Sequence record: MN850644.1
DNA: 64,000 nucleotides
Direction: 5' to 3' (one strand)
Origin: Escherichia phage ekra
Made by a program: the position numbers and the translations under genes. Under the pieces are notes generated by a model, which was not told the origin of the DNA, searched no databases, and saw only the letters and a list, made by a program, of their open reading frames with translations. Below, piece by piece: positions 5,086 through 40,984 of the stretch. Numbering within the stretch: the first letter of the stretch is position 1; every line of letters begins with the position of its first letter.

Positions 5086-5277
5086 TTTAGAATCTCCAGT
5101 TTAGGATTTAGTGGTAAAGCTCTTTATCTGGGGCTATCTTACCAGCTTGATAACCCCGTGTAAAGAAATCTATTTAGTCCTTAAAGATATTCATCACTGA
5201 GTCTTTTAATGATTCCAAACGTTCTAATACTTCAGATTCTGCGTCTGAGTTGTTCACTTCTTCTTTTAGCCTGTCAT

Positions 5278-5685
5278 CTAAATCATCGCCGTCACTATAG
5301 CACCAATCAAAAGCGTAACCGATATAAAACTGTCTAAAATTGTTTGACCATTTGCATCGACAACTTTCGCGGCAAGGTTGTATTCTGAAGCCTCTAAATC
5401 TCTTTCTAGTTCTTTCTGTAAGCTTGTGTAAGCCTCTTTTGATGGATTTTCCCGGCCTTGTTTTGCATAGTCACTTGAAAGCTGTTTAAGGCTGTAATGC
5501 AAAGGGATTGCATATTTAAAATCATTACGCTGACAGTTGGGATTTTTAACAGTCACACCGCCTTGATGGTCGTTTGTAAACTCCCAATTATCGAGATTAT
5601 GGCTTGCTTCGTAGCAATTTACCGCTTCGTAAATGATGGAAAATTTTTCTTTTACAACTTCAAAGGTAGCGTCTACAGTTTTCAT
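5278..5685 (-). CDS. hypothetical protein (135 aa)
   Basis: ORF; type B cassette upstream (5686-5780). Confidence 0.5.
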   Translation of the reverse strand: MKTVDATFEVVKEKFSIIYEAVNCYEASHNLDNWEFTNDHQGGVTVKNPNCQRNDFKYAIPLHYSLKQLSSDYAKQGRENPSKEAYTSLQKELERDLEASEYNLAAKVVDANGQTILDSFISVTLLIGAIVTAMI

Positions 5686-7512: not shown

Positions 7513-8298
7513 TTAGTTCTTTGCGTCTAAGAAGGTAACTTCTGGTGAAGAGAAGATTGCCTCGATATCCTCATCAGTTCTTGCATAGATATAAGCTTCT
7601 GCATCACTACCAAATGTTACAGCAATTCTGTGATTGCTCTTTGACAGGTGGGTAACTAGAGCGTTACTTAGAGACATCTTTTCAACCGGAGGGTTACTTT
7701 GATGTATCTTACCTTTTCTTCGTCTGAAGAGGGTAACTGCGTTATCTGTGAACACTGCTACACCTGCAAAGTATTCTGGTTCACAGTAGTTCTTCCAACC
7801 TGAGCGTAACTTGTGGTACATCTCGCCTTCATAGACATACAGATAAACATCTACACTCTTCATCACCTGATTGATGATAACTGTGACAGCTTGAGGGTCA
7901 AGTCCACCGATACCTGCACCAATCATAGGTAAACCAACTTTCTTCAACTGATTAACTTCACAGTATCTGTTAAGCTGTTTCAAAGATGACTCTAAAGCAC
8001 TGTATCGGGCATCTTTACCAGTCTTAAGCTGAGTGTAAAGGTTAGCTATACGACCTTGTTTTAAGCGTGCTACAGAGAAATTACCTAGTAAATTCTCACA
8101 GGGTTTGTGACCTATACCACCTGCATAGAGATAAACTTCTGTATCGGTCTCATATGCTTTTGGGTAAAGTTTAGAAATCTTGTCAGCGATACCTGCGCCC
8201 ATTAGGTTCATGCAGTTACAACCATGACCAATGATGTCAAACTTACCTTTATCAAATGCAGCAAAGATATCACCATTGATGATTTTTACAATACCCAT
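7513..8298 (-). CDS. Macrodomain protein, TARG1/DarG-like ADP-ribose-processing fold, with about 110-aa C-terminal extension
   Basis: N-terminal NGDIF...IIGHGCNCMNLMGAGIA matches the HCxS/N...MGxGIA signature of TARG1-type macrodomains; second glycine-rich stretch MIGAGIGGLD. Confidence 0.6.
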   Translation of the reverse strand: MGIVKIINGDIFAAFDKGKFDIIGHGCNCMNLMGAGIADKISKLYPKAYETDTEVYLYAGGIGHKPCENLLGNFSVARLKQGRIANLYTQLKTGKDARYSALESSLKQLNRYCEVNQLKKVGLPMIGAGIGGLDPQAVTVIINQVMKSVDVYLYVYEGEMYHKLRSGWKNYCEPEYFAGVAVFTDNAVTLFRRRKGKIHQSNPPVEKMSLSNALVTHLSKSNHRIAVTFGSDAEAYIYARTDEDIEAIFSSPEVTFLDAKN

Positions 8299-15728: not shown

Positions 15729-15750
15729 AGTTTTCTCCAGAAATTAAAAA

Positions 15751-15770
15751 GGCTCCCGTAGGAGCCTCTT
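15751..15770 (-). terminator. Intrinsic terminator hairpin (ggctcc cgta ggagcc) with T-run on minus strand
   Basis: Read directly; downstream of the NAMPT-like gene. Confidence 0.55.
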
Positions 15771-15781
15771 ATCATATACTT

Positions 15782-17467
15782 TTAAAGCTGCTTGTCAATA
15801 TTATTTCGAATATCACCAAGAGTTGTGTAACCAAACTGCTCAGAGTCACTAAAGACTAAACGTAAAGCACAAGCTGGGTGGTCAAGTACATCTGCAAAAC
15901 TCTGGAATCCATAGCCATCTACAGCTTTCAGCTTACCACCATCCCACATAGGTGCTACACCACCAAAGGCAGATTTCTTAACACCACTATCTGTTTTAGG
16001 GTCTTTTGCAAGCATAATCTCTTTACCACCAATGCTTGCAAGAGTTGCTTTGACAGCAAATGCAAAGGTGTCACGAGTCATGTACTGGTAAGTGTAAGAA
16101 CCTACGCCAAACACTACGTTAGAGCTTGCAAAACCCATTTCATACAGACGCTTCAGGATTTCGTTTGCACGTTCCAGCGTGATAGAGTCACCATAGATAA
16201 GTCCGATATGCTCATCCAGTACCTTAAACCCTTTAGAGTTAATAGTTCCCCCAAAGATGTTGTACAGTGTCTTAATAGCTCCATCAATCTCAGCTACAGG
16301 ACGTGTTACAACGTTTGCAGAACCAACCATATAAGCATTTTTCAACATCACTGTATCAGCAACTTCAAAGTCTTCTCTGTCAACAACCATTTCGTAGCCT
16401 TCTGACAGTAGCCATCCAGCAATACCATAGTTGATATTTTCAAGCTTCATGTTCAGAACAGCATTCAACATTGTGTCACTGGCTTCCAGCTTGCTTAGGT
16501 GCTCGTAATAAGCCTTTTTAGCACATTCTAAGTGGATTGCTTTATAACCTGTGACAATATGTACAGGGTCTCCAGAGTCAGGACGAATTACCAGTTTGCC
16601 ATCACGTTCCATAATTTCTTTACGAAGTGCTGGTAAAATTTCTGACACAGTTCTCCAGAAGTTATAAGTGTCTGAAACAACACTTGCAATACCAGTTGGG
16701 TAAGTTTCTGTTAAGAAACGACGGAAGGTTTGTAACTCACCTTTAAAGCGTCTTTCTTCTTCAATCAACTCATTACCACCTTCCCAAGCAATGTTTGCAC
16801 ACATTACAGAGTGCTCAGTGGCTGGTACAGAACCACCAATATCAGAGATTGGGTAAGACTGCCCGTAGATGCGTTTAGCTGTATATACAGCAGGGAAGCT
16901 ATCAGTTCCTTTAAAGCTGGTTAAGTGGCCTACAGCATTAAATGCGTCATCAGTAAAGCCGGACATACCACGCATAGCAAAGTCATGGCACTGATAAGGC
17001 AAATGTAAGTCGTTGTCACAAGTAAGGTCAGCCCACTTCTTACAGATACGTTTGTAGTGTAATGCAATAGTTGCAATGGTACAAGCCTTCCAAATCTCAG
17101 CAGAAAAAGCATCTTCCAGATACCCCGCTACCCAATGGAAACCTGAAACAGTGTTCTGGAAGACAATCATTGGCACACGCATAGGGACAACTGTGCCTTC
17201 TTCTACAGCGTATACTTCAACTGGCAGATAACCCAAGTCGTGAAGTGCTTCCCAATGCTCTCGACCGATAGCATCTTTACCCAGAACACCATTCATGACT
17301 TCTAAGATTTCGTCAATTGCTTCTTTTTTATCACGTTCAAAGAAGGTGGCATTCCAATGGTCTATCAAGTAATCTTTAACAAAACGTTGAATACCAAAAG
17401 CCACTACACCGTCAATTGCCAAAGGGCTGTTAAACCATTTGTCGCTACGTGGTGTCAGGTTCAACAT
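15782..17467 (-). CDS. Nicotinamide phosphoribosyltransferase (NAMPT/NadV) family protein; may be a nicotinamide ADP-ribose transferase of a phage NAD+ reconstitution pathway
   Basis: Matches recalled NAMPT motifs: IRPDSGDP, GDS...GVGSY, KDPKTDSGVKKSAFGG; 561 aa. Confidence 0.8.
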   Translation of the reverse strand: MLNLTPRSDKWFNSPLAIDGVVAFGIQRFVKDYLIDHWNATFFERDKKEAIDEILEVMNGVLGKDAIGREHWEALHDLGYLPVEVYAVEEGTVVPMRVPMIVFQNTVSGFHWVAGYLEDAFSAEIWKACTIATIALHYKRICKKWADLTCDNDLHLPYQCHDFAMRGMSGFTDDAFNAVGHLTSFKGTDSFPAVYTAKRIYGQSYPISDIGGSVPATEHSVMCANIAWEGGNELIEEERRFKGELQTFRRFLTETYPTGIASVVSDTYNFWRTVSEILPALRKEIMERDGKLVIRPDSGDPVHIVTGYKAIHLECAKKAYYEHLSKLEASDTMLNAVLNMKLENINYGIAGWLLSEGYEMVVDREDFEVADTVMLKNAYMVGSANVVTRPVAEIDGAIKTLYNIFGGTINSKGFKVLDEHIGLIYGDSITLERANEILKRLYEMGFASSNVVFGVGSYTYQYMTRDTFAFAVKATLASIGGKEIMLAKDPKTDSGVKKSAFGGVAPMWDGGKLKAVDGYGFQSFADVLDHPACALRLVFSDSEQFGYTTLGDIRNNIDKQL

Positions 17468-17579
17468 AAGATATTGCGTAGCATCTGGATACTGATATAT
17501 ATATGTGATGCCTTGTAAGCATCTGCATTAAGACCTGCTGGTACTGCGTAAAGTGACTTACTCATATTTTATCTCTCTC

Positions 17580-18071
17580 TTAGTTATGTCTTGCAAACTC
17601 ACCATGAAGTTCTATTCGCTTTTTAATTACAGCTTCTTTTGCTTCTTCTACCGTTTTAAATCTTCCACAAAAGTATTCTTTATGGTAAAGCATGACTCTT
17701 GCTTTGTAAAGACCTGTTTGTTTACAAAAACTTACACCCTTCACACCAGTTTTATTATTCTTGTATATACCTCTATTCCTCTGATTTTGTGACTTTGTGC
17801 TAAGTCTTAAATTCTCCAACTTATTATTAGATTTATCAAGGTCTATGTGGTCTATCTCATATCCACTTGGTATCTCACCTCCAGACATAATCCATGCAAT
17901 ATTATGTGCATAGTACCTCTTCTTATTTATCTGGACTTGGATATAACCCTTCTTAGACCTTGTGCCAGCCACATTACCAGCAATAGCGGTACTGCAAAGG
18001 GTTACTCTCCAAATTAATAAACCTGTATCTGGTTCATATATTAGGTATCTTTCAAAATAACCCTTATTCAT
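17580..18071 (-). CDS. Free-standing HNH homing endonuclease with AP2-type DNA-binding domain
   Basis: YAHNIAWIM...EIDHIDLDKSNNKLENLRL (HNH) and NKTGVKGVSF...YKARV (AP2); paralogous to 30369-30869 and 40472-40984. Confidence 0.75.
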   Translation of the reverse strand: MNKGYFERYLIYEPDTGLLIWRVTLCSTAIAGNVAGTRSKKGYIQVQINKKRYYAHNIAWIMSGGEIPSGYEIDHIDLDKSNNKLENLRLSTKSQNQRNRGIYKNNKTGVKGVSFCKQTGLYKARVMLYHKEYFCGRFKTVEEAKEAVIKKRIELHGEFARHN

Positions 18072-18079
18072 ACTGTTAC

Positions 18080-18976
18080 CTAATCAATGTTTGCTACAGT
18101 AACTTGACCATAATGTGTTAAGCCACGGTCTTTAGCTTCTCCTAAAGAGTTTGTAGTGTAGATATGGTCAATACCATTGCCAAGTAAGTTTTCAACCCCT
18201 TTAGAGAAAATGCCATGAGTTACATAGAGTTCCACACGTTTTGCACCTGCTTCACGTAGGTGTTTAGCTGCCTCTACGAAGGTTCGACCACCATCACAGA
18301 TATCATCAAGAATCATGACAGTTTTATCGGTCAAATCAACATCGTCAAGGATTCGCATACCAGTGATTTCTCCAGTCTTAAGATTGCGCACCTTAGACAT
18401 TGTGATATATGGTTTATCCACCTCTTTAGCGGCATCTTCAGTCTTCTTAGCTGCACCTGCATCTGGGGCTACCAAGAAATCAATGCGTGGGTCACTTGCA
18501 AAGTGTACTGCCACATCTTTTTGCTTCATGCTCTGAAAACACTTAAATAAGTTTTCTGCAACATTACTGTGAGGGTCAAGAGCACATACTGCATCAAAAC
18601 CCATTGCATTAACGAGGTTGGCAAAAACTTTCAGTGCTGCTGCATCACCTTTGAACATATGGCGGTCATATCGAGCATTTGGTAAGAACCCGAAAACAAC
18701 GGTTTTCATCGCTGATTTATAGGGAACAAGACTATCAACGGCATCCTTAGCCAAAGCTAATGCAAACAGTGTATCTTTGTCATATCCCTGTACAGTAATT
18801 ATAACATTATCAATCTTACCAGCATTACGCTCAGTAAACTTAACAAAATCTTCAGAGAAGTTTCCACCAATTTCTCCAGATGGGAATTGAATGATATTAA
18901 ATTTTTCTGTGTGGAAGAATTTCTCTTGTGCGGTGACGACGGCTTCAATAACAGTTTTCATAGTTTTCTCTCTCAA
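18080..18976 (-). CDS. Ribose-phosphate pyrophosphokinase (PRPP synthetase, Prs)-like protein; may be an ADP-ribose pyrophosphokinase
   Basis: PRPP-binding-type motif MILDDICDGGRT (DDIxDxGxT); 298 aa; beside NAMPT-like gene. Confidence 0.75.
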   Translation of the reverse strand: MREKTMKTVIEAVVTAQEKFFHTEKFNIIQFPSGEIGGNFSEDFVKFTERNAGKIDNVIITVQGYDKDTLFALALAKDAVDSLVPYKSAMKTVVFGFLPNARYDRHMFKGDAAALKVFANLVNAMGFDAVCALDPHSNVAENLFKCFQSMKQKDVAVHFASDPRIDFLVAPDAGAAKKTEDAAKEVDKPYITMSKVRNLKTGEITGMRILDDVDLTDKTVMILDDICDGGRTFVEAAKHLREAGAKRVELYVTHGIFSKGVENLLGNGIDHIYTTNSLGEAKDRGLTHYGQVTVANID

Positions 18977-19251
18977 TCAAAAGTTACGTTTGTTACTGCC
19001 ATTGCAGATTTGCATTTTGCAGGGTCTACAACGTGATAAAGTACACTACAGTTACCTGTGCTATCTGGTACAGGCTTTACCCATTGCTGCTTTATAGTTG
19101 GCTCCCCTAAGTCTTTGTAAGAGCCATCTGTAAAGTTGTTTACCATCTCAAGTGCAATTGGTTCTGGAACATGACCACGTATCATGTACATTTCACAACC
19201 ATTACCGCCTTCACTGACTAATGGTAAAATCTCCCACTTCTCTTTAGCCAT
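18973..19251 (-). CDS. hypothetical protein (92 aa)
   Basis: ORF. Confidence 0.45.
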   Translation of the reverse strand: MAKEKWEILPLVSEGGNGCEMYMIRGHVPEPIALEMVNNFTDGSYKDLGEPTIKQQWVKPVPDSTGNCSVLYHVVDPAKCKSAMAVTNVTFD

Positions 19252-19759
19252 TGTAAGTTGCCCTATAAACTGTCTCGAACTTCAACAGGAGAGATATTGC
19301 CAAATCTGTATAGTTGTTGTCAAGCACATCTGGCATATTATTTTTGATATATTTCTCTTGCTCTTCATAGGTCATCTTAGGGATGCTTAGGAGTCTATCT
19401 CCTTGCTTCTGGTTATCAGCTTTAGTTTGGATAAACCAGTTCGCACAGTGATGCTCACCACCCTTTGTAACAGGTTTGTGGTGGCCTAATGTGAAGGATT
19501 GACTACCTGTGTATCTGCAAAGTCTATTAAGTACTGTAATGGTGTTCTTCACAACAAAACATTCATACAGGTTATCTATGGTGTAATGCGGGTAGTAACG
19601 GAATAGTGCTCTTTCACGAGTACTGCCACGATTCCAGAGAATCATGTGATTGGAGTTAGAAGGGTCGTATTGGTGGGAGTCAATGAACTCTTGACGTTCC
19701 TCAAAGCTGAGTCTTAGCACTGACATTGCAGCAGAACGTTTTAGGTTTGACAGATACAT
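19244..19759 (-). CDS. hypothetical protein (171 aa)
   Basis: ORF; His-rich segment GHHKPVTKGGEHHCANW of unknown meaning. Confidence 0.45.
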   Translation of the reverse strand: MYLSNLKRSAAMSVLRLSFEERQEFIDSHQYDPSNSNHMILWNRGSTRERALFRYYPHYTIDNLYECFVVKNTITVLNRLCRYTGSQSFTLGHHKPVTKGGEHHCANWFIQTKADNQKQGDRLLSIPKMTYEEQEKYIKNNMPDVLDNNYTDLAISLLLKFETVYRATYNG

Positions 19760-19810
19760 ATCATCTCCAAAATAAAAAGGGAACCTTTACAGTTCCCTTA
19801 TAGTATCTGT

Positions 19811-21943: not shown

Positions 21944-24088
21944 TTACATAGAAACCCTGTCACGAATCTCAGCAATTTTTGCATCATTCATTCGGGATTC
22001 ACCTTTAATCTTAGTCCATCCCAGATATCCGCACACCCTGTTAATCACAGAGATGTCATGTGAATGGCAAACCTCACATTCTTCAACATCAGCCTTTGGT
22101 CTGTTACCACAATGTTCACAGATTGCTAAGTCAAAGTTAAGTCCCTGATAAAAACCCTTCAACATCCCTCTGGTAATACAACTTTTAAGTGCTGTTAAGT
22201 TTTCTGGGTTAGCTACCCTTACATACTGGATTCTACCACCTCTACAGATATGGAAGAAGGGTTCTTCTAAGTCCTGCTTCTCAAATGGTGTAATGTCTGC
22301 TGCAACATTCATATGGAAACTGTTTGTAAAGTATTCCTTGTCAGAAACGCCTTTGATAACGCCAAACATATCTCTGAACTGTTTTAGCTGAGTTCCACAA
22401 AGTGATTCTGCTGGAGTGCCATAGACTGCATATAAGAAGCCATCTTCATTTTTAAACTCTTCAGTCTTCATGTTGATATATTCCAGAACATCATATGCAA
22501 AACTACAGCTTCCAACTTCATGAAGTCGTTTACCTTCAGCAAGAACAGATAGCTCATCAAGCGCAGTAACCCCAAAAGAAGCTGTGAAGGACTTCACGAT
22601 ATCCCAGCCAACCTTGTCAGTAGGTTTCTTATTCCCTTTGTACAGGCCACCTTGTGTGAATGCAAGAGGGTTAGAACTTGCTGGCATATTAGCAATCATT
22701 TCGTAACGTTTCTTGTGGAAGCTGCGAATCATTTCTAGGTACTTATCAAGCTCTTTCCAGAAATCTAAGTCATTCTCTTTAGAATACTGGTAAATCATTG
22801 GTAAGTTCAAAGATACAGCACCAATGTTAGCACGACCAACGTAGAACTCTTCCCCATTCTCGTTAAAATATGGAGATAAGAAGGCTCTGCAACCCATCGG
22901 TGAAATTACCTTACCAGAACGCTCAAAAGCCTCTGCTACAGCACCATGTCCAGATACACTTAAGAAATCTGGATACATAGCTTTAGAGCAACACTCAATA
23001 GCTTTACTGTACAGGTGGCCTTGACAGATATTCTCATTATGTCTCTTCTGGTCATAAATATAAACCAGTTTAGGGAATACAACAGGCTTCTTGCTCTTAC
23101 CTTGTCCATTCATACGAACATCTAGGAGAGTGCTTGCAATCATGTATTGCAGTCGGTTATCTTCATTAGACATATCTGAGTCAAGTAACCCGAATGTCAA
23201 AGTTGTGAATGCAAAATCACCACGGCTACAAGGCACAGTATTGAGCTTCATTTCAAGAGACTGAAAACCTTGAGTTAATTCAATCTGTAGCTGCTCCATG
23301 ACATAGTTGTGGTAATGTTCTTTAGGAATACCATAAGCTGTTGCTTTTTCAGCATGGTAACGTAGAGACTTCTTAGCATACGGTACAAGTACCTTATCAA
23401 TCTCTGCTAAAGTAAAGCCACCAAATTGCTGTGCAGTTGCTGAAAGAACTACATCACCAATAACCTGTAAGGCTGACAGTACAGACTTCGGTTCACAGTA
23501 TTCAATGCCAGACATTTCAAAGCCACCTTTCAGCACTTTACCAATGTCAAACAAGCAACAGTTGATACCACCAAAAATCAGGTCTCTTAAATCATGGATA
23601 TAGATAAACCCTTTTTCAATGGCTTCAAGTTCCTCTGGTGTTAGGTGGTACTGTTTAAAGATTTCTTTAGTCAGGTAACCACGAATAATTGAGCCTTTTG
23701 TAGAAATTAAACTGCTGTCAAAATTAGCGTTTTCTCGGTCACCTAAGAAGAGTGTATCTTTGGTCTTCTGGTAGAGTTCATCCCAATTTTGAGCAACCTC
23801 TTTACGGTAATTTCTATATGTTGAGTAAGACTCATAAATCTCGTGATTGACTTCTGCCAAAGCACCTTCAACAATACTGTGAATATCATTTACTGAAATG
23901 AGTAAATTATTCTGCTTAGTAGATTTTACCAGAATCCTCATAAATGCTGACTCAAGAGCTTGGGTAACATCTGGTGGAAGTTCTTTATACCCAACCCTAT
24001 TAGCTGACTTTGAGACTGCTGCTAAAACTTTTTTGATATCAGGTTCTTCGAGTGAGCCATTCTTTTTAATAATCTGTACTTTGTTCAT
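21944..24088 (-). CDS. nrdD: Anaerobic ribonucleoside-triphosphate reductase (class III)
   Basis: C-terminal glycyl-radical motif RVCGYLG and zinc ribbon CEHCGN...CEVCHS; 714 aa. Confidence 0.85.
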   Translation of the reverse strand: MNKVQIIKKNGSLEEPDIKKVLAAVSKSANRVGYKELPPDVTQALESAFMRILVKSTKQNNLLISVNDIHSIVEGALAEVNHEIYESYSTYRNYRKEVAQNWDELYQKTKDTLFLGDRENANFDSSLISTKGSIIRGYLTKEIFKQYHLTPEELEAIEKGFIYIHDLRDLIFGGINCCLFDIGKVLKGGFEMSGIEYCEPKSVLSALQVIGDVVLSATAQQFGGFTLAEIDKVLVPYAKKSLRYHAEKATAYGIPKEHYHNYVMEQLQIELTQGFQSLEMKLNTVPCSRGDFAFTTLTFGLLDSDMSNEDNRLQYMIASTLLDVRMNGQGKSKKPVVFPKLVYIYDQKRHNENICQGHLYSKAIECCSKAMYPDFLSVSGHGAVAEAFERSGKVISPMGCRAFLSPYFNENGEEFYVGRANIGAVSLNLPMIYQYSKENDLDFWKELDKYLEMIRSFHKKRYEMIANMPASSNPLAFTQGGLYKGNKKPTDKVGWDIVKSFTASFGVTALDELSVLAEGKRLHEVGSCSFAYDVLEYINMKTEEFKNEDGFLYAVYGTPAESLCGTQLKQFRDMFGVIKGVSDKEYFTNSFHMNVAADITPFEKQDLEEPFFHICRGGRIQYVRVANPENLTALKSCITRGMLKGFYQGLNFDLAICEHCGNRPKADVEECEVCHSHDISVINRVCGYLGWTKIKGESRMNDAKIAEIRDRVSM

Positions 24089-28577: not shown

Positions 28578-28902
28578 GGTATTTCTCCAAGTTTCTTTTC
28601 AGATACAACCAACCATAGTCAGTCCTTTCTACACCCATAAAGAGTGGAGCCATCACAACTTTACCGAAAGTATTTCTGTGTTGGCAGATTTCAAAGGAAT
28701 ACTCTTTCTCAATATCAATCCCATATTTGTACAGGACTGCTTTTAAAACTTGTTCATTGTCCAGAAGTGTATCTGGAGTCTCACCATATTTTTCTAGTAA
28801 CGGGTCATTCATAAACACCGTCATAGAAATATTGTAGTTTGAGAAGTGGCTCTTCTGAGCCACACCCTCTTTATTAATGTTCTGTGAATCCATTATAACC
28901 AA
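28570..28902 (-). CDS. hypothetical protein (110 aa)
   Basis: ORF. Confidence 0.45.
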   Translation of the reverse strand: MVIMDSQNINKEGVAQKSHFSNYNISMTVFMNDPLLEKYGETPDTLLDNEQVLKAVLYKYGIDIEKEYSFEICQHRNTFGKVVMAPLFMGVERTDYGWLYLKRNLEKYRV

Positions 28903-29629
28903 CCCCTTTTAACCAGCACTTCAGGTTATTAGCATCATAATTCAGTTTCGGGTATGAGGTTACATGGAACTGCTCACCATCATAATAGACAATATCTGCA
29001 ATCCATAGTCCATTCTCTTTACAGAAGTCTTTATCTGCTTTAGAGGTAATTGGATTAACTTCTACAAAACCATCTACACCCAAATCCTTTAAGCTACCTA
29101 CAATACCTTTGCAGATAACGCATGTCTCAGATACTACCACAAAAAGTTCTTGGCTTTCAAGTTCTACAATGTATTCACCAAGCTGTACTTTAGGGAGATT
29201 TGATTGCTTCATAATCTTCCCATCGGCTGCACGAACAATAGCATACCACTCTTTACCATCAACTACTGACATTCTGATAATACACTCTTGACCAGTACGC
29301 TTTTCAATGTCTGCAAGACGTTTTAAAGCTTCTTCATAGTCATCTGTGTATTTCAGGTCATTATTATGGCAAACAGCTTTCATAGCACCGTTATGGTCAT
29401 GTTGTGACAGGTAAATCAAACCGTCAAGAACATATTGCAAATCTGCCTGAGCATCCAGTGTCTCAATGGGGTCTTTCTCTTCAATTGCTTTTACAAGCTC
29501 TTTTGCTTCTTCAAGCATACACAGAGATTGAGATTTTAAAGATTCCCAATACTCATCACTGTAAGGTTGCTTTTTAGTGTTTCCACAACGAAGGTTCCAG
29601 TTTTTTACTGATTCTCTTGAGTTAAACAT
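28874..29629 (-). CDS. hypothetical protein (251 aa)
   Basis: ORF. Confidence 0.5.
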   Translation of the reverse strand: MFNSRESVKNWNLRCGNTKKQPYSDEYWESLKSQSLCMLEEAKELVKAIEEKDPIETLDAQADLQYVLDGLIYLSQHDHNGAMKAVCHNNDLKYTDDYEEALKRLADIEKRTGQECIIRMSVVDGKEWYAIVRAADGKIMKQSNLPKVQLGEYIVELESQELFVVVSETCVICKGIVGSLKDLGVDGFVEVNPITSKADKDFCKENGLWIADIVYYDGEQFHVTSYPKLNYDANNLKCWLKGVGYNGFTEH

Positions 29630-29874: not shown

Positions 29875-30372
29875 TCAAGCACAATTTGCTTTCATTACCT
29901 TATGGATTCTTTTTTCAGCATCTTCATAAGTTTCTTTAGTAATAAACTTAATTGCTGCAATATTGGCATTGTAGAAGAGTCTGAGCTTCGAGTCAATCCT
30001 TTTTGTCATTACATCGAATTTATGTTGAAGGTTTGCTTCACCATAGACTAGGCCACCTTTTGTGTAGTAGGTCTGAATAATGTAAAAGTCAAAAAATTCT
30101 TTTCCAAAGCTCTCAATATCTTTTTTAATATACTCAGAAGAAGTCTCGTAAGTCATCCAATCACTCTCCTTAGTGACTACCTTCTTCCGAGTCTTCCCAG
30201 CAACTTTTCTTTTTGTCACACTGTTAAGCTGTTTCTTTCCGATATAATATTGTCCAGTCTTCTTACAGTGCACTAAATAGACAAAGCCAAAATGTTTAGT
30301 GGGGTCAACTTCCCCACATAAAGATACCCAATGACCGTAGGTAGGGCAATTGCCAAATCCTTTAATCTTCAT
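29875..30372 (-). CDS. Possible GIY-YIG-type homing endonuclease
   Basis: FVYLVHCKKTGQYYIGKK resembles the GIY...YIG motif; adjacent to HNH endonuclease. Confidence 0.35.
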   Translation of the reverse strand: MKIKGFGNCPTYGHWVSLCGEVDPTKHFGFVYLVHCKKTGQYYIGKKQLNSVTKRKVAGKTRKKVVTKESDWMTYETSSEYIKKDIESFGKEFFDFYIIQTYYTKGGLVYGEANLQHKFDVMTKRIDSKLRLFYNANIAAIKFITKETYEDAEKRIHKVMKANCA

Positions 30373-30869
30373 TCATAAGCTTCTCCGTGATTTGAAAACT
30401 CTTTATGTAGTTCTTCTCTTTTCTTTGTGACTGCATCTTTGGCATCTTCAATACTGTCAAAATACCCCAGAAAGTGAGATACTCCGTGTGTCATAACTCT
30501 GGCCTTCCATTTTTGGTTAGCCTTATAGAAAGATACACCCTTAACTCCAGATGTGTTGTTGGAGTGTGTTCTTCTATTCCAAGAGTTTTCAGCTTGTGTG
30601 CAAACCCTTAGATTTAATCTCCGATTATCATTAGTAATACCGTTTCGATGGTCTACTCTGTTAGGTAGGAAACCGTCTGTGTACAGGATTGCTAAATCAT
30701 GAGCCATATAGGGTTTTCTTTTAATTTTTATCCTAATATAACCTCGCTTATGTGGTGTACCTGCAATGGAACCTATAACTGTTCTTTTAGCTGATTTCTT
30801 TATCCACGTAAAGACCCCTGTTTCGGGGTCATAGTGTAGATATTCTTTAAGTATCTGCTGAGTCAACAT
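30369..30869 (-). CDS. HNH homing endonuclease with AP2 domain (paralog 2)
   Basis: HYDPETGVFTW, GYIRIKIKRKPYMAHDLAILY, VDHRNGITNDNRRLNLRV, SGVKGVSFYKANQKWKARV; probable start at MLTQQILKEY. Confidence 0.75.
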   Translation of the reverse strand: MLTQQILKEYLHYDPETGVFTWIKKSAKRTVIGSIAGTPHKRGYIRIKIKRKPYMAHDLAILYTDGFLPNRVDHRNGITNDNRRLNLRVCTQAENSWNRRTHSNNTSGVKGVSFYKANQKWKARVMTHGVSHFLGYFDSIEDAKDAVTKKREELHKEFSNHGEAYE

Positions 30870-31893
30870 TTGGAGTCCAACCATACTTTTCAAATGAAAA
30901 AATATCTGATTTATTTCGCTCTTGATAAGCTAGGAAGAAATGCTGTTCCATTAACTCTAACGGCGTCTTTGTAACGGTCTGTCCATCCCATGACACATAG
31001 GTATAAGAGTCTTTTTTAGCATAAAGTTCATAGATAGCGTCAAGACACTCTTTGTAGGTCTCTTTACCCTCTAAAGCATTCATCACAGCTACTTTACCAG
31101 CACCTTTTAGGCCGAAGTAGTTGTCTGCATTATCTCCAGCAACAGCCTGATAACACAAGAATTTAAAACCTACACCAACTGTTTTTGCAGCTTTTGGTTT
31201 TGATTTGATAGGGCAATCCCAGATATTACCAACATTATTATCAGCGATAAAAATTAGTGGTGATTTTTCATAAGTCATATCAATACAATAAGTCCCTTCA
31301 GCTTGTCGAAGGTCTTTGTCAATACTCATAAGAGCAGCTTTCTTACCCATCTTTTCAGCTTTAGCAATTACGATTGAATCGGCTTCGAAGCCCCCCTTTA
31401 AGAGTTTGAACTCTGGTCTTGACAGGAGATACTCACGACAAGCAACTAAGTGTGTTGGTGTGACAGCATCTTTGCGGTTACCTTGATATTGGTGCTCGAG
31501 ACCTTTAATGTCTTTATGTTTATGCACACCTTTCTCTGTTAAATAACCTACCCAAGTTCTCTCTTTACCAACAACCTTAAGCCATTCCTGAAGCACCTGT
31601 TGAGTAGCCATGATAGCTTCTTTTTCACTCTTAGCTTCTTTCCAAGTCTGTCTTTCCCATTCATCTTCATCAAATGTCAGGCCAAGTTCTTCCACAAGGA
31701 TTCTCTGGTCTGCTAACCATCTTGCAGCATCTTTCGCATTATCAAATGGTTCAGATTCTTCTGCTGTGAGTTTATTGACATATTTATATTTTGCTTTCTC
31801 AACTACACAAGCACCTTTATAGGCAATACTGTCAGAGTCAATAAAAACATGTGTAACTGAATCGGGAAGTTTTGTTAATGTGTACTTCTCCAT
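30847..31893 (-). CDS. Putative 5-prime-3-prime exonuclease / flap endonuclease
   Basis: N-terminal VFIDSDSIAYKGA resembles FEN-family N-terminal motif; location in replication module; tentative. Confidence 0.4.
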   Translation of the reverse strand: MEKYTLTKLPDSVTHVFIDSDSIAYKGACVVEKAKYKYVNKLTAEESEPFDNAKDAARWLADQRILVEELGLTFDEDEWERQTWKEAKSEKEAIMATQQVLQEWLKVVGKERTWVGYLTEKGVHKHKDIKGLEHQYQGNRKDAVTPTHLVACREYLLSRPEFKLLKGGFEADSIVIAKAEKMGKKAALMSIDKDLRQAEGTYCIDMTYEKSPLIFIADNNVGNIWDCPIKSKPKAAKTVGVGFKFLCYQAVAGDNADNYFGLKGAGKVAVMNALEGKETYKECLDAIYELYAKKDSYTYVSWDGQTVTKTPLELMEQHFFLAYQERNKSDIFSFEKYGWTPNVDSADT

Positions 31894-37761: not shown

Positions 37762-40461
37762 ATGGAAAACGTAGATTTTAAAAACTTACATTTAGTTGGT
37801 GATACAGAAACTGATGGTTTACTCCTTGAGTTCACTAAAGTGCACGTAATGGCTTTCGCAGACTATAAATCTGACGATGAAGAGCCACCTGTATGGGTCT
37901 TTACAGATGAGCCTATCCTCGGTCACAAGTACACTAAGTACATCAAGGGCGGCTTACGTGAAGGTGTTGAATTTGCGTTAAAGGCAAAACGTCTTTGCAT
38001 CCATAATGGTCTCGGCTATGACTGGTGGGTTTTCAATCACATTGCGCCTGATTTATGGAACTTTGATAATCCAAAATGTAAGCCGTGGAGTAATTTCTTT
38101 CAGGATTCTCTTATCCAGTCTCGTGTTCAGTGGATGGATAGGCCAACCCCAAAGGGTTATAAAGGTGCTCATGGTTTGGCTGCATGGGGTGCTCGTGTTG
38201 GTGTCCGTAAACCAGAGATTGAACATTGGGGTGTGTGGAATGCAGAAATCTTCACTCGTGTTGTAGAAGATATCCGTATTAACGCCAAAACTAAACGGGC
38301 ACTTGATAATGAGTATCTCAAGCTTAAGAAGTGTGGCATAGATACTTATGAAACCTATATGCGAGCTAAAGAAACATCTTTCTGGATGAGTCAACAAGCT
38401 ATCAATGGTTGGAAAGCTGATAAGGAGCTTATGGAGTTCCATGTAAAGGAACTTGACAAGTTGACTAATGAGCTTGCTTCAGAGGTTGAACCACATCTTC
38501 CTCCAACTATTAAGACCAAAGGTAAAGTGACTGGAGAAGAGTTTGCAAAAGCTTGGAATGAGTATGTTGAAACATTTGGTCATGCAGATGGACTGAAGAG
38601 GATTACCAAGTACCCTAAGACAAAGTATCGTCAGCAGGTACGTAATGGTGAGATGCAGACATATGAAATCAAGCCATTTGGTAAGCCAACTACAAAGATT
38701 TTTAACATTGAAAAGAGAAATTGCTATACACCAACCAACTCTGTAACTGGTGAAGAGTACAAGGAGGGTTTTGTAGCAATGAAGGATGCTCGTGAAATTT
38801 GCAATGAGTTGAATGCAAAGATTGGTAAGAAATGCAAAGACTGGAAGCCAGTAAAAACAGTCAAAACTGTGAAGTACTATAACAGTCACGTTGTTAACCA
38901 CTTTGAACTTGAGTCAAGTCGCTACACAGGTTTGATTGATGCACCGTATACACCAATTGAGTTTGAAGTTTCTCGTATGACTCAGGTAGCAGTTGTTAAA
39001 GACTACTTGAAATCAGTTGGTTGGATTCCAGATGACTGGAACTACAAGAAAGACTCAGATGGTCGCCCTGTCAAAGTTTGTCGTTTCAAAGACAATAAAA
39101 AGATGATTACAAAACATCCTAAGTGGCAGGAAATGGTTGAGCGGTGTGGTTTGAGCTATGTTGAGCACGAAGGTGTACAGTATATTGAGCATAACTGGTC
39201 TGTGAAGAAGTACACAGATTTGCTTGAGCCTTGCTTAATCCGTACTTCACCAAAACTTACTGAATCATCTTATGATACGATTGAAGGTGAGCTTGGACAG
39301 AAGATTGCGAAATACTACACTTTGATGCACAGACGCAGAACTATTGAGAACTCAAAGGATGATGAAAAAGGTTGGTTGAACCAGATTCGTCCTGATGGTC
39401 GCCTTAGTGCTGGTGCAATGGTGTTTGGTACTTCAACTGGACGTATGACACAATATGGTATTGTAAACGTACCGTCTGGTGCTGCTGTCTATGGGGAACC
39501 AATGAGGGCAGTGTGGATTTGTGAGGAAGGGACTAACGTTGTCTCTGTAGACATGAACTCAGCCCAGCTAGTTCTTCTTTGTAACTTTATGGGTGACAAA
39601 GACTTCACCAAAGCGGTAACGCAAGGTAAAGAAGAGATTGAGTTCATTCGTCAAGAAGATGGACGCTATTACTGCAAACATTTTGATGAGTATCTCAACC
39701 CAGAAATTGATAAGTACCTTCGCTATGACTCTGAGAATGACCTGTACGTTGTCTATTCAGGGACTGATGCACATACACTGAACAGTATTTACTTTAGCTT
39801 GAATGATGAGCAGGATATCTTGACTTGTCGAGCTACTCAGGATGAGAATCTTCTTCATGAGATTAGCAAAGGTCGTAAGAAAGCTAAGAATGGTATCTAT
39901 GCACTGCTGTTCGGTGCAGGTGATGAGAAGTTTGCTAAGACGATTAAAGCTGCAACTACTCAGGAAGGAGCACTGACTAAACAGACTTACTTTATTCGTT
40001 TGCCTAAAATTAAGAAGCTGCTAGATGACTTGGAAGCTGACTACAAAGCAACTAAAAAGGCACTTGAAGAGGTGTTTGGTAAGACTGCTGCAATCTCTAA
40101 AGGGGGTTTTGTAAAGGTTGCTGGAGCTTGGTTGTGGTGTAAATCTCCACATAAGTTATTGAATTATTTGCTCATGGGTTCAGAGGCTCAGATTCAAAAT
40201 GAGGCGATTAACCTTGCTTGTAGAAGAGCATGTGAAGAAGGGTTGACAAAATTAAATGGACGAAAACCAGCAATTGGTGCTAGGCTTTTGCTGGCATACC
40301 ACGATGAAAACAGTTGGGAGTGCCCAGAAAGTATGACTCAAGAAGTTAAAGCCATAACTGACTGGATGTATGGTCAGGCATCTAAGAATTTAGGTTTGAA
40401 GAGTGAGACGCTTGTAACTGGCACAGGTAAGGTTGGTAAGAGCTGGTTGGAAGTGCATTGA
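37762..40461 (+). CDS. DNA polymerase, family A (T7/Pol I-like)
   Basis: Motif A-like SVDMNSAQL, motif B-like KAKNGIYALLFGAG, motif C LLAYHDE; start placed at ATG with GGGAG RBS (MENVDF). Confidence 0.85.
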   Translation: MENVDFKNLHLVGDTETDGLLLEFTKVHVMAFADYKSDDEEPPVWVFTDEPILGHKYTKYIKGGLREGVEFALKAKRLCIHNGLGYDWWVFNHIAPDLWNFDNPKCKPWSNFFQDSLIQSRVQWMDRPTPKGYKGAHGLAAWGARVGVRKPEIEHWGVWNAEIFTRVVEDIRINAKTKRALDNEYLKLKKCGIDTYETYMRAKETSFWMSQQAINGWKADKELMEFHVKELDKLTNELASEVEPHLPPTIKTKGKVTGEEFAKAWNEYVETFGHADGLKRITKYPKTKYRQQVRNGEMQTYEIKPFGKPTTKIFNIEKRNCYTPTNSVTGEEYKEGFVAMKDAREICNELNAKIGKKCKDWKPVKTVKTVKYYNSHVVNHFELESSRYTGLIDAPYTPIEFEVSRMTQVAVVKDYLKSVGWIPDDWNYKKDSDGRPVKVCRFKDNKKMITKHPKWQEMVERCGLSYVEHEGVQYIEHNWSVKKYTDLLEPCLIRTSPKLTESSYDTIEGELGQKIAKYYTLMHRRRTIENSKDDEKGWLNQIRPDGRLSAGAMVFGTSTGRMTQYGIVNVPSGAAVYGEPMRAVWICEEGTNVVSVDMNSAQLVLLCNFMGDKDFTKAVTQGKEEIEFIRQEDGRYYCKHFDEYLNPEIDKYLRYDSENDLYVVYSGTDAHTLNSIYFSLNDEQDILTCRATQDENLLHEISKGRKKAKNGIYALLFGAGDEKFAKTIKAATTQEGALTKQTYFIRLPKIKKLLDDLEADYKATKKALEEVFGKTAAISKGGFVKVAGAWLWCKSPHKLLNYLLMGSEAQIQNEAINLACRRACEEGLTKLNGRKPAIGARLLLAYHDENSWECPESMTQEVKAITDWMYGQASKNLGLKSETLVTGTGKVGKSWLEVH

Positions 40462-40471
40462 TGGTGTTGAA

Positions 40472-40984
40472 ATGATTACAGAAATTCGTCTTAAGGAGCT
40501 ATTGGACTACGACCCCGAAACAGGGGTCTTTACTTGGAAGTTTAGAGAAGGTAATGCAAACTTTAACTCTAGATTTGGAGGTAAGAGGGCTGGAAACTAC
40601 AGAACAAATACTGATGGACACAAGTCAGTTCAGTTGCTGATTGATGGAAGGGGTTACCAAGCAAATCGTTTAGTTATCTTGTATATGGATGGATATCTAC
40701 CTGATAAAACCTTACAGGTTGACCATAAGAATGGGGACGGTTGGGACAATAGGTACTTGAATTTAAGGGTTTGTACAGCTTCACAAAACTCTTGCAATCG
40801 GTCAAGAGAGTCCCCATCTGGGTTGCCAAAAGGTGTACAGAAGATAAGTAAAAGGTTTCGAGCAATGATACGTTTACAAGGTAAAAACTATCATCTTGGT
40901 ATGTTTGACACACCAGAAGAAGCCCATAAAGCTTACTGTGAAGCTGCTATTAAACTCCACGGAGAGTTTGCAAAACTATCTTGA
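40472..40984 (+). CDS. HNH homing endonuclease with AP2 domain (paralog 3), abutting the polymerase gene
   Basis: DYDPETGVFTW, HKSVQLLIDGRGYQANRLV, VDHKNGDGWDNRYLNLRV; probable start at MITEIRLKE. Confidence 0.75.
   Translation: MITEIRLKELLDYDPETGVFTWKFREGNANFNSRFGGKRAGNYRTNTDGHKSVQLLIDGRGYQANRLVILYMDGYLPDKTLQVDHKNGDGWDNRYLNLRVCTASQNSCNRSRESPSGLPKGVQKISKRFRAMIRLQGKNYHLGMFDTPEEAHKAYCEAAIKLHGEFAKLS

Follow-up and report, generated by a model that had tools for sequence, protein, structure and literature searches.

Background

The NARP1 pathway has shown that viruses can rebuild a metabolite destroyed by host immunity, namely nicotinamide adenine dinucleotide (NAD+). It was discovered on genes 79-80 of Bas63 (Osterman et al. 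2024, bioRxiv 10.1101/2024.02.11.579819), that is, Escherichia phage JohannRWettstein of the BASEL collection (record MZ501086), which we use as the reference for protein comparisons. Bas63 lacking these two genes is sensitive to the SIR2-HerA defence and fails to restore NAD+, whereas the wild type restores it, and this effect is independent of the host genes pncC and nadR (10.1101/2024.02.11.579819). In Bas63 infection ADP-ribose pyrophosphate (ADPR-PP) was seen only when the NARP1 operon and the defence system were present together, and the two reactions, ADP-ribose (ADPR) plus ATP giving ADPR-PP and ADPR-PP plus nicotinamide giving NAD+, were reconstituted with the homologues from the Bacillus phage SpbetaL1 (10.1101/2024.02.11.579819). 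The respective enzymes are the Prs-like Adps, an ADP-ribose pyrophosphokinase, and the NAMPT-like Namat, a nicotinamide-ADPR transferase. Here we describe the adps-namat locus of Escherichia phage ekra, which lies at 15782-18976 in a stretch of 64,000 nucleotides from record MN850644.1 (this whole stretch is hereafter the window), and which had been put forward as a candidate NAD+-restoring counter-defence module in an earlier reading of the nucleotide letters (the sequence-only reading).

The structures of SpbetaL1 Namat (9w5w and 9w5x; Lan et al. 2026, PMC12774641) provide the landmarks for such a comparison. The Nampt-like core ligands are, in SpbetaL1 numbering, F189, R192, D215, the catalytic His, R306 and D308 (Lan et al. 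2026, PMC12774641). Beyond these, an adenine-clamp element termed SCH, with the signature GSXphiXphiXphiTRD, is specific to Namat and not found in Nampt (Lan et al. 2026, PMC12774641). A second element, the selectivity loop (SCL), adds an adenine-stacking residue; its third residue is either Arg, or Lys or Tyr followed by the stacker, and the Lys-then-stacker arrangement has been described for Bas63 (Lan et al., PMC12774641). The published rule of association between Namat and Adps genes is that they occur 'within 10 genes' of each other.

The adps and namat genes of phage ekra

Three open reading frames (ORFs) had been delineated on the minus strand in the sequence-only reading, and we confirmed their coordinates as 15782-17467 (561 amino acids, aa), 17580-18071 (163 aa) and 18080-18976 (298 aa). 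The motifs quoted for the NAMPT-like and Prs-like products (IRPDSGDP, KDPKTDSGVKKSAFGG and MILDDICDGGRT) were verified within the translations, and the three family assignments, namely NAMPT-like, HNH-AP2 and Prs-like, are backed by Pfam and PHROG matches far beyond chance, although the AP2 part of the second is weak. The central proposal of that reading was that the first and third proteins form an ADPR pyrophosphokinase and nicotinamide-ADPR transferase route rather than a pathway of phosphoribosyl pyrophosphate (PRPP) and nicotinamide mononucleotide (NMN) synthesis. This proposal is borne out, because the Adps and Namat proteins are respectively 98% and 99% identical to the products of Bas63 genes 79 and 80, on which the pathway was established, and the Namat signatures described below point the same way. 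On the basis of these comparisons we hold it to be very nearly certain that the locus is the NARP1 counter-defence operon (Adps plus Namat) of a Felixounavirus, with an HNH gene in its spacer and a private +2 insertion in namat.

The 561-aa NAMPT-like protein (15782-17467) is identical to residues 33-593 of Bas63_0080 at 553 of 561 positions (99%), and matches Pfam NAPRTase with an e-value of 9.5e-35 and PHROG 448 with 1e-190. The sequence-only reading had suggested profile and structure comparison as a means of separating the phage-type enzymes from the canonical ones. Such a comparison returned SpbetaL1 Namat (9w5x/9w5w, E 8e-121) as the best match among solved structures, well above bacterial and human NAMPT, and placed Adps far below the cut-offs of the Prs equivalog models (see below). 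In the alignment to 9w5x all the core ligands are kept, in the form of F163, R166, D189, H219, R295 and D297 (561-aa numbering). The SCH motif is also present as G456-SYTYQYMTRD-466, which fits the published signature, the equivalent stretch of SpbetaL1 being GSFTYQYNTRD; its third phi position is occupied by Met instead of the usual Asn or Val, as it is in Bas63. In the SCL, the residues S-D-K-W align with T-S-R40-V of SpbetaL1, such that a Lys-Trp stacking pair takes the place of Arg40. Thus, the window locus and SpbetaL1 NARP1 share the same catalytic core and adenine selectivity clamp, while differing by substantial substitution over the aligned regions (the HMMER e-value being that given above) and by an insertion of about 85 aa in the window and Felixounavirus protein. 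This insertion (16283-16534, minus strand, Namat residues 312-395) has no counterpart in the solved SpbetaL1 Namat, and appears to be compatible with function because it is common to Bas63 Namat. With respect to the association rule, namat adjoins an Adps-clade gene apart from the HNH gene, the end of adps lying 514 nt upstream of the namat ATG with the HNH gene as the sole gene between them. Given its 99% identity to Bas63_0080, we infer that the window Namat would make NAD+ from ADPR-PP and nicotinamide, and would prefer ADPR-PP over PRPP.

The Prs-like protein, as read from the 298-aa ORF, matches Pfam Pribosyltran (1.5e-11) and Pribosyl_synth (5.6e-9) as well as PHROG 619 (2e-99). The coordinates of this ORF stand, whereas its start does not: it opens at TTG 18976, but the real start of adps is almost certainly ATG 18961, giving 293 aa (18080-18961, minus strand), because GAGAGAGA sits 5 nt upstream of it and the Bas63 annotation agrees. 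The same Shine-Dalgarno-like motif precedes namat. Over this length Adps is identical to Bas63_0079 at 287 of 293 positions (98%). It keeps the PRPP-type loop DDICDGGRT, and its Lys190 (K195 in the 298-aa ORF, in the context ...TMSKVRN...) aligns with the flexible-loop Lys of the EKER motif in the archaeal Prs 4twb. The corresponding flexible-loop catalytic Lys of SpbetaL1 Adps is K162, and we take this Lys to be the equivalent of K197 of B. subtilis Prs. Of the NCBIfam Prs models, only the broad subfamily model TIGR01251 accepts Adps (135.7 against a cut-off of 113), whereas the scores of Adps against the equivalog and narrower models are 48-112 bits as compared to cut-offs of 296-536. These results suggest that it belongs to the phage Adps clade, apart from cellular Prs; Bas63_0079 is itself among the query sequences that define this clade. 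The protein is thus predicted to convert ADP-ribose and ATP to ADPR-PP, and not ribose-5-phosphate to PRPP.

The mechanism demonstrated for Bas63 and SpbetaL1 would, given the near-identity of the proteins, operate here as follows. An NAD+-depleting defence (SIR2-HerA, type I Thoeris, DSR1/2 or SEFIR) would split NAD+ into ADP-ribose and nicotinamide; Adps (18080-18961) would then pyrophosphorylate ADP-ribose with ATP to yield ADPR-PP; and Namat (15782-17565 when counted from its full-length start) would catalyse displacement of the pyrophosphate by nicotinamide, yielding NAD+ with neither an NMN intermediate nor an NMN adenylyltransferase. The HNH gene (17580-18071) occupies the spacer and would stand outside this chemistry; the polymorphism and mosaicism described below suggest that its spread relies on cleavage of HNH-less alleles, into which it is then copied along with its flanks. 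The private +2 insertion, an additional AT, would part the first 32 codons of namat, including those for a nicotinamide-stacking Tyr and a neighbouring Asp, from the rest of the gene.

The sequence-only reading had also stated that no NMN adenylyltransferase is seen in the window, and this held as far as it was tested, by Pfam scans of 19 ORFs and a motif search. Neither a CTP_transf_like nor a NUDIX match was recovered by Pfam in the 19 window ORFs, which were chosen mostly for lacking a known function, and a regular-expression search of the six-frame translation of the window found no GxFxPxH/TxGH (HxGH-type) motif. The range of this search was the 64-kb window out of a genome of about 87 kb. 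Furthermore, no such enzyme is annotated in the complete Bas63 genome. The NadV neighbourhood of Vibrio phage D482, considered as a source of a phage NMN adenylyltransferase sequence for a direct search, has none annotated. The comparison is of relevance to NARP2 (the Nampt NadV plus the Nmnat NatV of Vibrio phage KVP40), which resembles the window locus in using a NAMPT-family enzyme to restore NAD+ against depleting defences. However, NARP2 depends on both PRPP, the preferred substrate of its Nampt, and an NMN adenylyltransferase, whereas in the window no such adenylyltransferase is detectable and the NAMPT-like protein bears the Namat clamp motif and is paired with Adps.

The system is therefore an already known one and in effect the published model system, which removes its novelty: the pathway was established in 2024 in the same genus, so that no new pathway biology is to be had here. 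What goes beyond the literature is confined to the private frameshift, the homing-endonuclease mosaic and an unlinked Adpp-like Macro protein, all of which are minor or unproven.

A frameshift at the 5' end of namat

Bas63 Namat is 593 aa long, and the 561-aa ORF of the window is a 5'-truncated reading of this 593-codon gene, comprising its codons 33-593. Thus, while the coordinates of the ORF as originally delineated are correct, it is not a complete gene: homologous coding sequence runs on upstream to an ATG at 17565, out of frame. The missing 96 nt correspond to homologous DNA upstream of ATG 17467, and ATG 17565 lies behind the Shine-Dalgarno-like AGAGAGAG (17573-17580, minus strand, as read from the sequence), but the frame is shifted. 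Alignment with relatives identified the cause as an extra AT at 17495-17504, where the window has (AT)5 and the relatives have (AT)4. As a result, the 5' part of the gene is read as a leader ORF of 34 codons (17461-17565, minus strand), MSKSLYAVPAGLNADAYKASHIYISIQMLRNILC followed by a stop, whose TGA overlaps codons 2-3 of the 561-aa ORF (ATGTTGA). The leader starts with MSKSLYAVPAGLNADAYKASH and continues into frameshifted residues, its homology extending over codons 1-21 of Bas63 Namat, after which the frame is lost. Removal of one AT in silico yields a 593-codon ORF with 580 of 593 positions (97.8%) identical to Bas63 Namat.

Residues D15 and Y17 of the leader align with D13 and Y15 of SpbetaL1 Namat. 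In the latter, the nicotinamide pocket is completed by these two residues of the partner protomer, with Y15 stacked on the nicotinamide ring and D13 in the pocket lining (Lan et al. 2026, PMC12774641). Because D15 and Y17 match these nicotinamide-pocket residues, the displaced segment would not be dispensable. Moreover, the point of truncation is predicted to fall inside strand beta1 of the central sheet. In the sequence as given the N-terminal Asp and Tyr are out of frame with the rest of Namat, whereas they are in frame with it in all relatives. If (AT)5 is real, the isolate would make only a truncated Namat, which would probably be inactive.

We noted no second instance of this frameshift. 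It is absent from all 28 related IMG/VR loci, 25 of which have an ATG exactly 96 nt upstream in frame and the other three the same in-frame flank, and from all 112 GenBank records matching the namat 5' region. Among the full-length GenBank matches listed, 121 bases of the query align with 119-120 bases of the record, the records with the identical allele having 119. The namat of Bas63 is likewise in frame. The exact 561-aa product has no entry in the public gene-position index. Elsewhere in the window, only one more frame break was found among the 82 ORFs in common with Bas63, and hence the assembly does not appear to be generally error-prone. This second break (about 5177-5685, minus strand) affects the homologue of Bas63_0101, a hypothetical and variable protein of 170 aa, with the frames switching near 5326-5338; no obvious repeat was seen at that junction.

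Two explanations of the extra AT, an artefact and a genuine, very recent loss-of-function allele, were rated about equally. The artefact, arising in sequencing, assembly or library PCR, would leave the isolate with an intact 593-codon namat and a working NARP1, and we would place it just short of an even chance. It draws on the uniqueness of (AT)5 among the approximately 140 relatives, on the location of the site within a low-complexity (AT)n run and on the perfect ORF, closely matching Bas63 Namat, that is regained on removing the dinucleotide. However, the remainder of the 64 kb is almost free of frame breaks relative to Bas63, and two-base insertions are not, to our knowledge, the commonest type of error on current sequencing platforms.

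The alternative that the +2 frameshift is real, with namat a pseudogene and NARP1 non-functional in this isolate, is a serious possibility that we would nevertheless put somewhat below even. The sequence as given does show (AT)5; expansion of a dinucleotide run is a typical replication-slippage mutation; and the scarcity of other frame breaks among the ORFs shared with Bas63 speaks for this explanation. That the change would be inactivating is suggested by the lost residues, which include the counterparts of the nicotinamide-binding D13' and Y15' of SpbetaL1 and part of strand beta1. Such an allele could stem from propagation on hosts without an NAD+-depleting defence, and Adps left by itself would then lead to dead-end ADPR-PP. 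On the other hand, the frameshift is absent from every one of the relatives, and the downstream part of the gene is entirely intact and 99% conserved, which implies that any inactivation would be very recent. In addition, the TGA/ATG overlap could permit re-initiation, giving a putative truncated protein. If the frameshift is real, this natural loss-of-function allele of namat would constitute a ready-made control phage.

Two further causes of the displaced reading frame were ruled out. Programmed frameshifting or phase variation at the (AT) run finds neither an (AT)5 in the approximately 140 relatives nor a slippery-site context. Insertion of the HNH gene as the cause of the truncation is contradicted by the HNH-carrying relatives from IMG/VR, six of six of which have an intact 593-codon namat, and by the GenBank records listed in both the HNH and the junction search, none of which has the extra AT. 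The break is due to the extra AT alone.

Alternative functions of the two proteins

Several points weigh against assigning a working NARP1 pathway to phage ekra. For the ekra genome itself the support comes from sequence comparison, and the published in-vitro biochemistry was carried out with the SpbetaL1 enzymes and not with those of Bas63. The sequence as written encodes no full-length Namat, which makes function in the isolate uncertain. Pfam, PHROGs and NCBIfam name both proteins as canonical Prs and NAPRT/NAMPT. Finally, SpbetaL1 Namat makes NMN from PRPP if ADPR-PP is absent (Lan et al., PMC12774641).

The last two of these points are also the ones that favor ordinary nucleotide metabolism, in which a PRPP synthetase and a NAMPT would make NMN, to be turned into NAD+ by the host NadR or PncC; the GenBank annotations of the relatives agree with the family names, and Namat retains its PRPP-dependent NMN synthesis in vitro when ADPR-PP is lacking. 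We consider this alternative very improbable and largely refuted already by the Bas63 data, since Bas63, whose proteins are 98-99% identical, accumulates ADPR-PP and can defeat SIR2-HerA even in a host lacking both pncC and nadR. With both substrates present, SpbetaL1 Namat makes NAD+ only. In the window proteins themselves, the presence of the adenine-clamp motif, which is not in Nampt, and the scores of Adps far below the Prs equivalog cut-offs speak against it as well. As for the names, we found no curated model specific to Adps or Namat in NCBIfam, where both proteins match generic Prs and NAPRT models only. Pfam, PHROGs, NCBIfam and GenBank still call Adps a PRPP synthetase and Namat a nicotinate/nicotinamide phosphoribosyltransferase, and annotation alone would hence mislead.

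The HNH endonuclease and mosaicism of the locus

Within the NARP1 operon, the ORF at 17580-18071 (minus strand) begins 8 nt past the adps stop and fills the adps-namat spacer. Its 163-aa product matches Pfam HNH_3 (1.7e-19, above the cut-off), AP2 (4.5e-4, below the cut-off) and PHROG 99 (3e-68), and is best described as a free-standing homing endonuclease with predicted cleavage activity. In Bas63, which is HNH-less, the spacer is 45 nt long and contains a GC hairpin, whereas the window has the 492-nt HNH ORF in its place. The endonuclease is without a plausible catalytic role in NAD+ chemistry, and it does not appear to disrupt the NARP1 pathway since namat is intact in all six HNH-carrying IMG/VR relatives.

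The statement in the sequence-only reading that the locus is a target of mobile-element traffic is supported by the presence/absence polymorphism of the HNH gene among relatives. With 90-99.8% identity the gene was found in 61 GenBank phage records including FelixO1, as compared to about 257 Felixounavirus-like records carrying the neighbouring genes, and in 6 of the 28 IMG/VR relatives, always at the identical site; its frequency is thus about one quarter of the relatives. The gene is further linked to a separate namat allele over the first ~30 codons (...K[A/S]SHIYQYPDATQYLM...; 'ASH/SSH...PDATQYLM'), which is seen in 7 of 7 HNH-carrying versus 3 of 23 HNH-less sequences (Fisher 6e-5, uncorrected for relatedness).

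Sliding identity in 150-nt windows delineated an apparent co-conversion or recombination tract around the HNH gene (17426-18170, minus strand), running from about 18170 to 17426 and comprising the adps 3' end, the HNH gene and the namat 5' end. Over this tract the window and the HNH-carrying loci L015 and L012 agree at 96-100% of positions. When it is compared with Bas63, the aligned flanking windows fall to 54% and 78%, and the HNH gene is without a counterpart. Conversely, over the 5' half of adps (18472-18921) identity amounts to 96-99% with Bas63 but only 66-76% with other HNH-carrying phages. The window is thus a mosaic at adps-HNH-namat, and the mosaic taken together with the polymorphism presents the pattern expected of homing with co-conversion of flanks. 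Two deeply divergent classes of adps alleles exist in the genus, with the 5' half differing by 24-34% at the DNA level; unlike adps, namat keeps a protein-level conservation of 96-99% across the main group of relatives. The HNH gene may act as a recombination hotspot that shuffles the divergent adps alleles between phages.

The mob and seg genes of T4 are free-standing homing endonucleases situated in intergenic spacers, for example mobE between nrdA and nrdB. The window resembles these cases in having a small HNH ORF between two conserved genes, a patchy presence among close relatives and a linked divergent flanking allele; it differs in that target site and cleavage are putative for this enzyme. 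The locus thus documents a homing endonuclease living in a counter-defence operon, with evidence of allele exchange. That the inserted ORF might instead contribute to the pathway as a third component, in the manner of Adpp or RyDEP, and not be a selfish element is scarcely credible: accessory genes within NARP1 operons do extend the pathway in the Vibrio phage Gary (a Macro phosphatase) and in DyoEdafos (a RyR-domain glycosidase), but the protein here is a textbook HNH_3 plus AP2 endonuclease, two paralogous HNH-AP2 ORFs and a GIY-YIG ORF occur elsewhere in the window in unrelated contexts, the gene is not in Bas63, whose NARP1 works, and its patchy distribution is accompanied by the co-conversion signature.

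The window genome is in general rich in homing-endonuclease elements. The further ORFs of this type lie at 29875-30372 (minus strand), 30369-30893 (minus strand) and 40433-40984 (plus strand), one of them being GIY-YIG SegE-like and two HNH_3 plus AP2. The ORF at 40433-40984 is located just past the DNA polymerase gene, where a homing endonuclease is annotated in Bas63 too.

An unlinked Macro domain protein

An extension of NARP1 has been described in relation to the aRES defence, which converts NAD+ to ADPR-1''-phosphate, a product that is unusable by NARP1 (Osterman et al. 2026, bioRxiv 10.64898/2026.01.28.702374). In about 15% of NARP1 phages the operon has a gene for a Macro phosphatase of the Poa1p type (Adpp) no more than two genes away; this arrangement is termed NARP1-AP, and in the case of Vibrio phage Gary the Adps-Adpp-Namat operon has been shown to defeat aRES (10.64898/2026.01.28.702374). 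We found no Macro gene within the operon of the window: none of the ORFs flanking NARP1 has a Pfam match to Macro, and the only Macro domain in the window is at 7513-8298. Likewise, the 171-aa and 92-aa ORFs upstream and the 111-aa and 58-aa ORFs downstream were rejected as candidate Macro or RyR accessories, as they have no such Pfam match.

The 261-aa ORF at 7513-8298 (minus strand) encodes a Macro domain (Pfam 1e-7, above the cut-off; PHROG 335) and is the homologue of Bas63_0095, annotated as 'putative phosphatase'. Its fold is Poa1p/TARG1/DarG-like. The N-terminal 154 aa align with the full length of gp175 of Vibrio phage Quinn, an orthologue of Adpp, with 28% identity (E 4e-14); gp175 lies between the Adps and Namat genes in an operon that is 94.8% identical to that of Gary. 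Furthermore, a homologue with 34% identity is encoded two genes from namat in Pseudomonas phage PN09. Hence, the window shares with Gary NARP1-AP the same two core enzymes and, in addition, a Macro protein homologous to Adpp. In contrast to Gary, the Macro gene of the window is outside the operon, 7.5 kb and many genes away, and its product is extended at the C terminus by a beta-rich domain of about 100 aa.

These similarities raise the prospect that FelixO1-like phages run a split NARP1-AP, in which the Macro protein would dephosphorylate the ADPR-1''-phosphate produced by an aRES-type defence and feed ADP-ribose to the unlinked Adps and Namat. We regard this as unlikely on balance. A dedicated role in NARP1 is disfavored by the distance of the gene from the operon and by the additional C-terminal domain, and also by the occurrence of homologues in T-even phages, which, as far as we know, lack NARP1. 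If a split NARP1-AP did exist, the Felixounavirus case would have escaped the published 'within two genes' criterion. The unlinked Adpp-like Macro protein is accordingly best viewed as a candidate for testing against the aRES defence.

Genomic context

A 5-kb query around the locus retrieved 259 phage records, nearly all of them from FelixO1-like phages of Escherichia, Salmonella and Shigella, with a top identity of 96.9%, and the 64-kb window is therefore Felixounavirus DNA. The 82 Bas63 ORFs of at least 80 codons with a counterpart in the window are almost all 85-100% identical and are collinear in order. Bas63 and the window agree in genus, gene order and neighbours, with rIIA downstream and nrdG/nrdD upstream of adps-namat.

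Two terminator-like hairpins, both on the minus strand, flank a set of five minus-strand genes comprising the 171-aa ORF, the 92-aa ORF, adps, HNH and namat. One of these, recovered in a hairpin scan, is at the upstream edge of the transcription unit (19777-19799). The other is found with a T-run right behind the namat stop (15747-15770) and consists of a 10-bp stem with 5 GC pairs and a T-rich tail. The 171-aa (19244-19759, minus strand) and 92-aa (18973-19251, minus strand) ORFs are directly upstream of adps and co-oriented with it. They are of unknown function and are respectively 97% and 100% identical to Bas63 genes 77 and 78. Neither has an informative family match in Pfam or PHROG, the 171-aa ORF being weakly HNH-like.

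Downstream of namat, Bas63 has a 114-aa ORF of unknown function (gene 81, PHROG 20372; 10509-10853 of L007) that the window lacks, there being no counterpart at 15729-15781 of the window or in the four HNH-carrying relatives aligned. An ORF of this type is present in the HNH-less Bas63, L010 and L025. The nrdD gene of the window (21944-24088, minus strand) is one intact ORF of 714 aa, whereas that of Bas63 is annotated as two joined pieces split by a segment carrying a homing endonuclease. Finally, the region at 28874-29629 (minus strand) encodes a 251-aa MazG-like nucleotide pyrophosphohydrolase (Pfam PRA-PH, PHROG 2144), which is a possible further candidate for a role in nucleotide metabolism or counter-defence.

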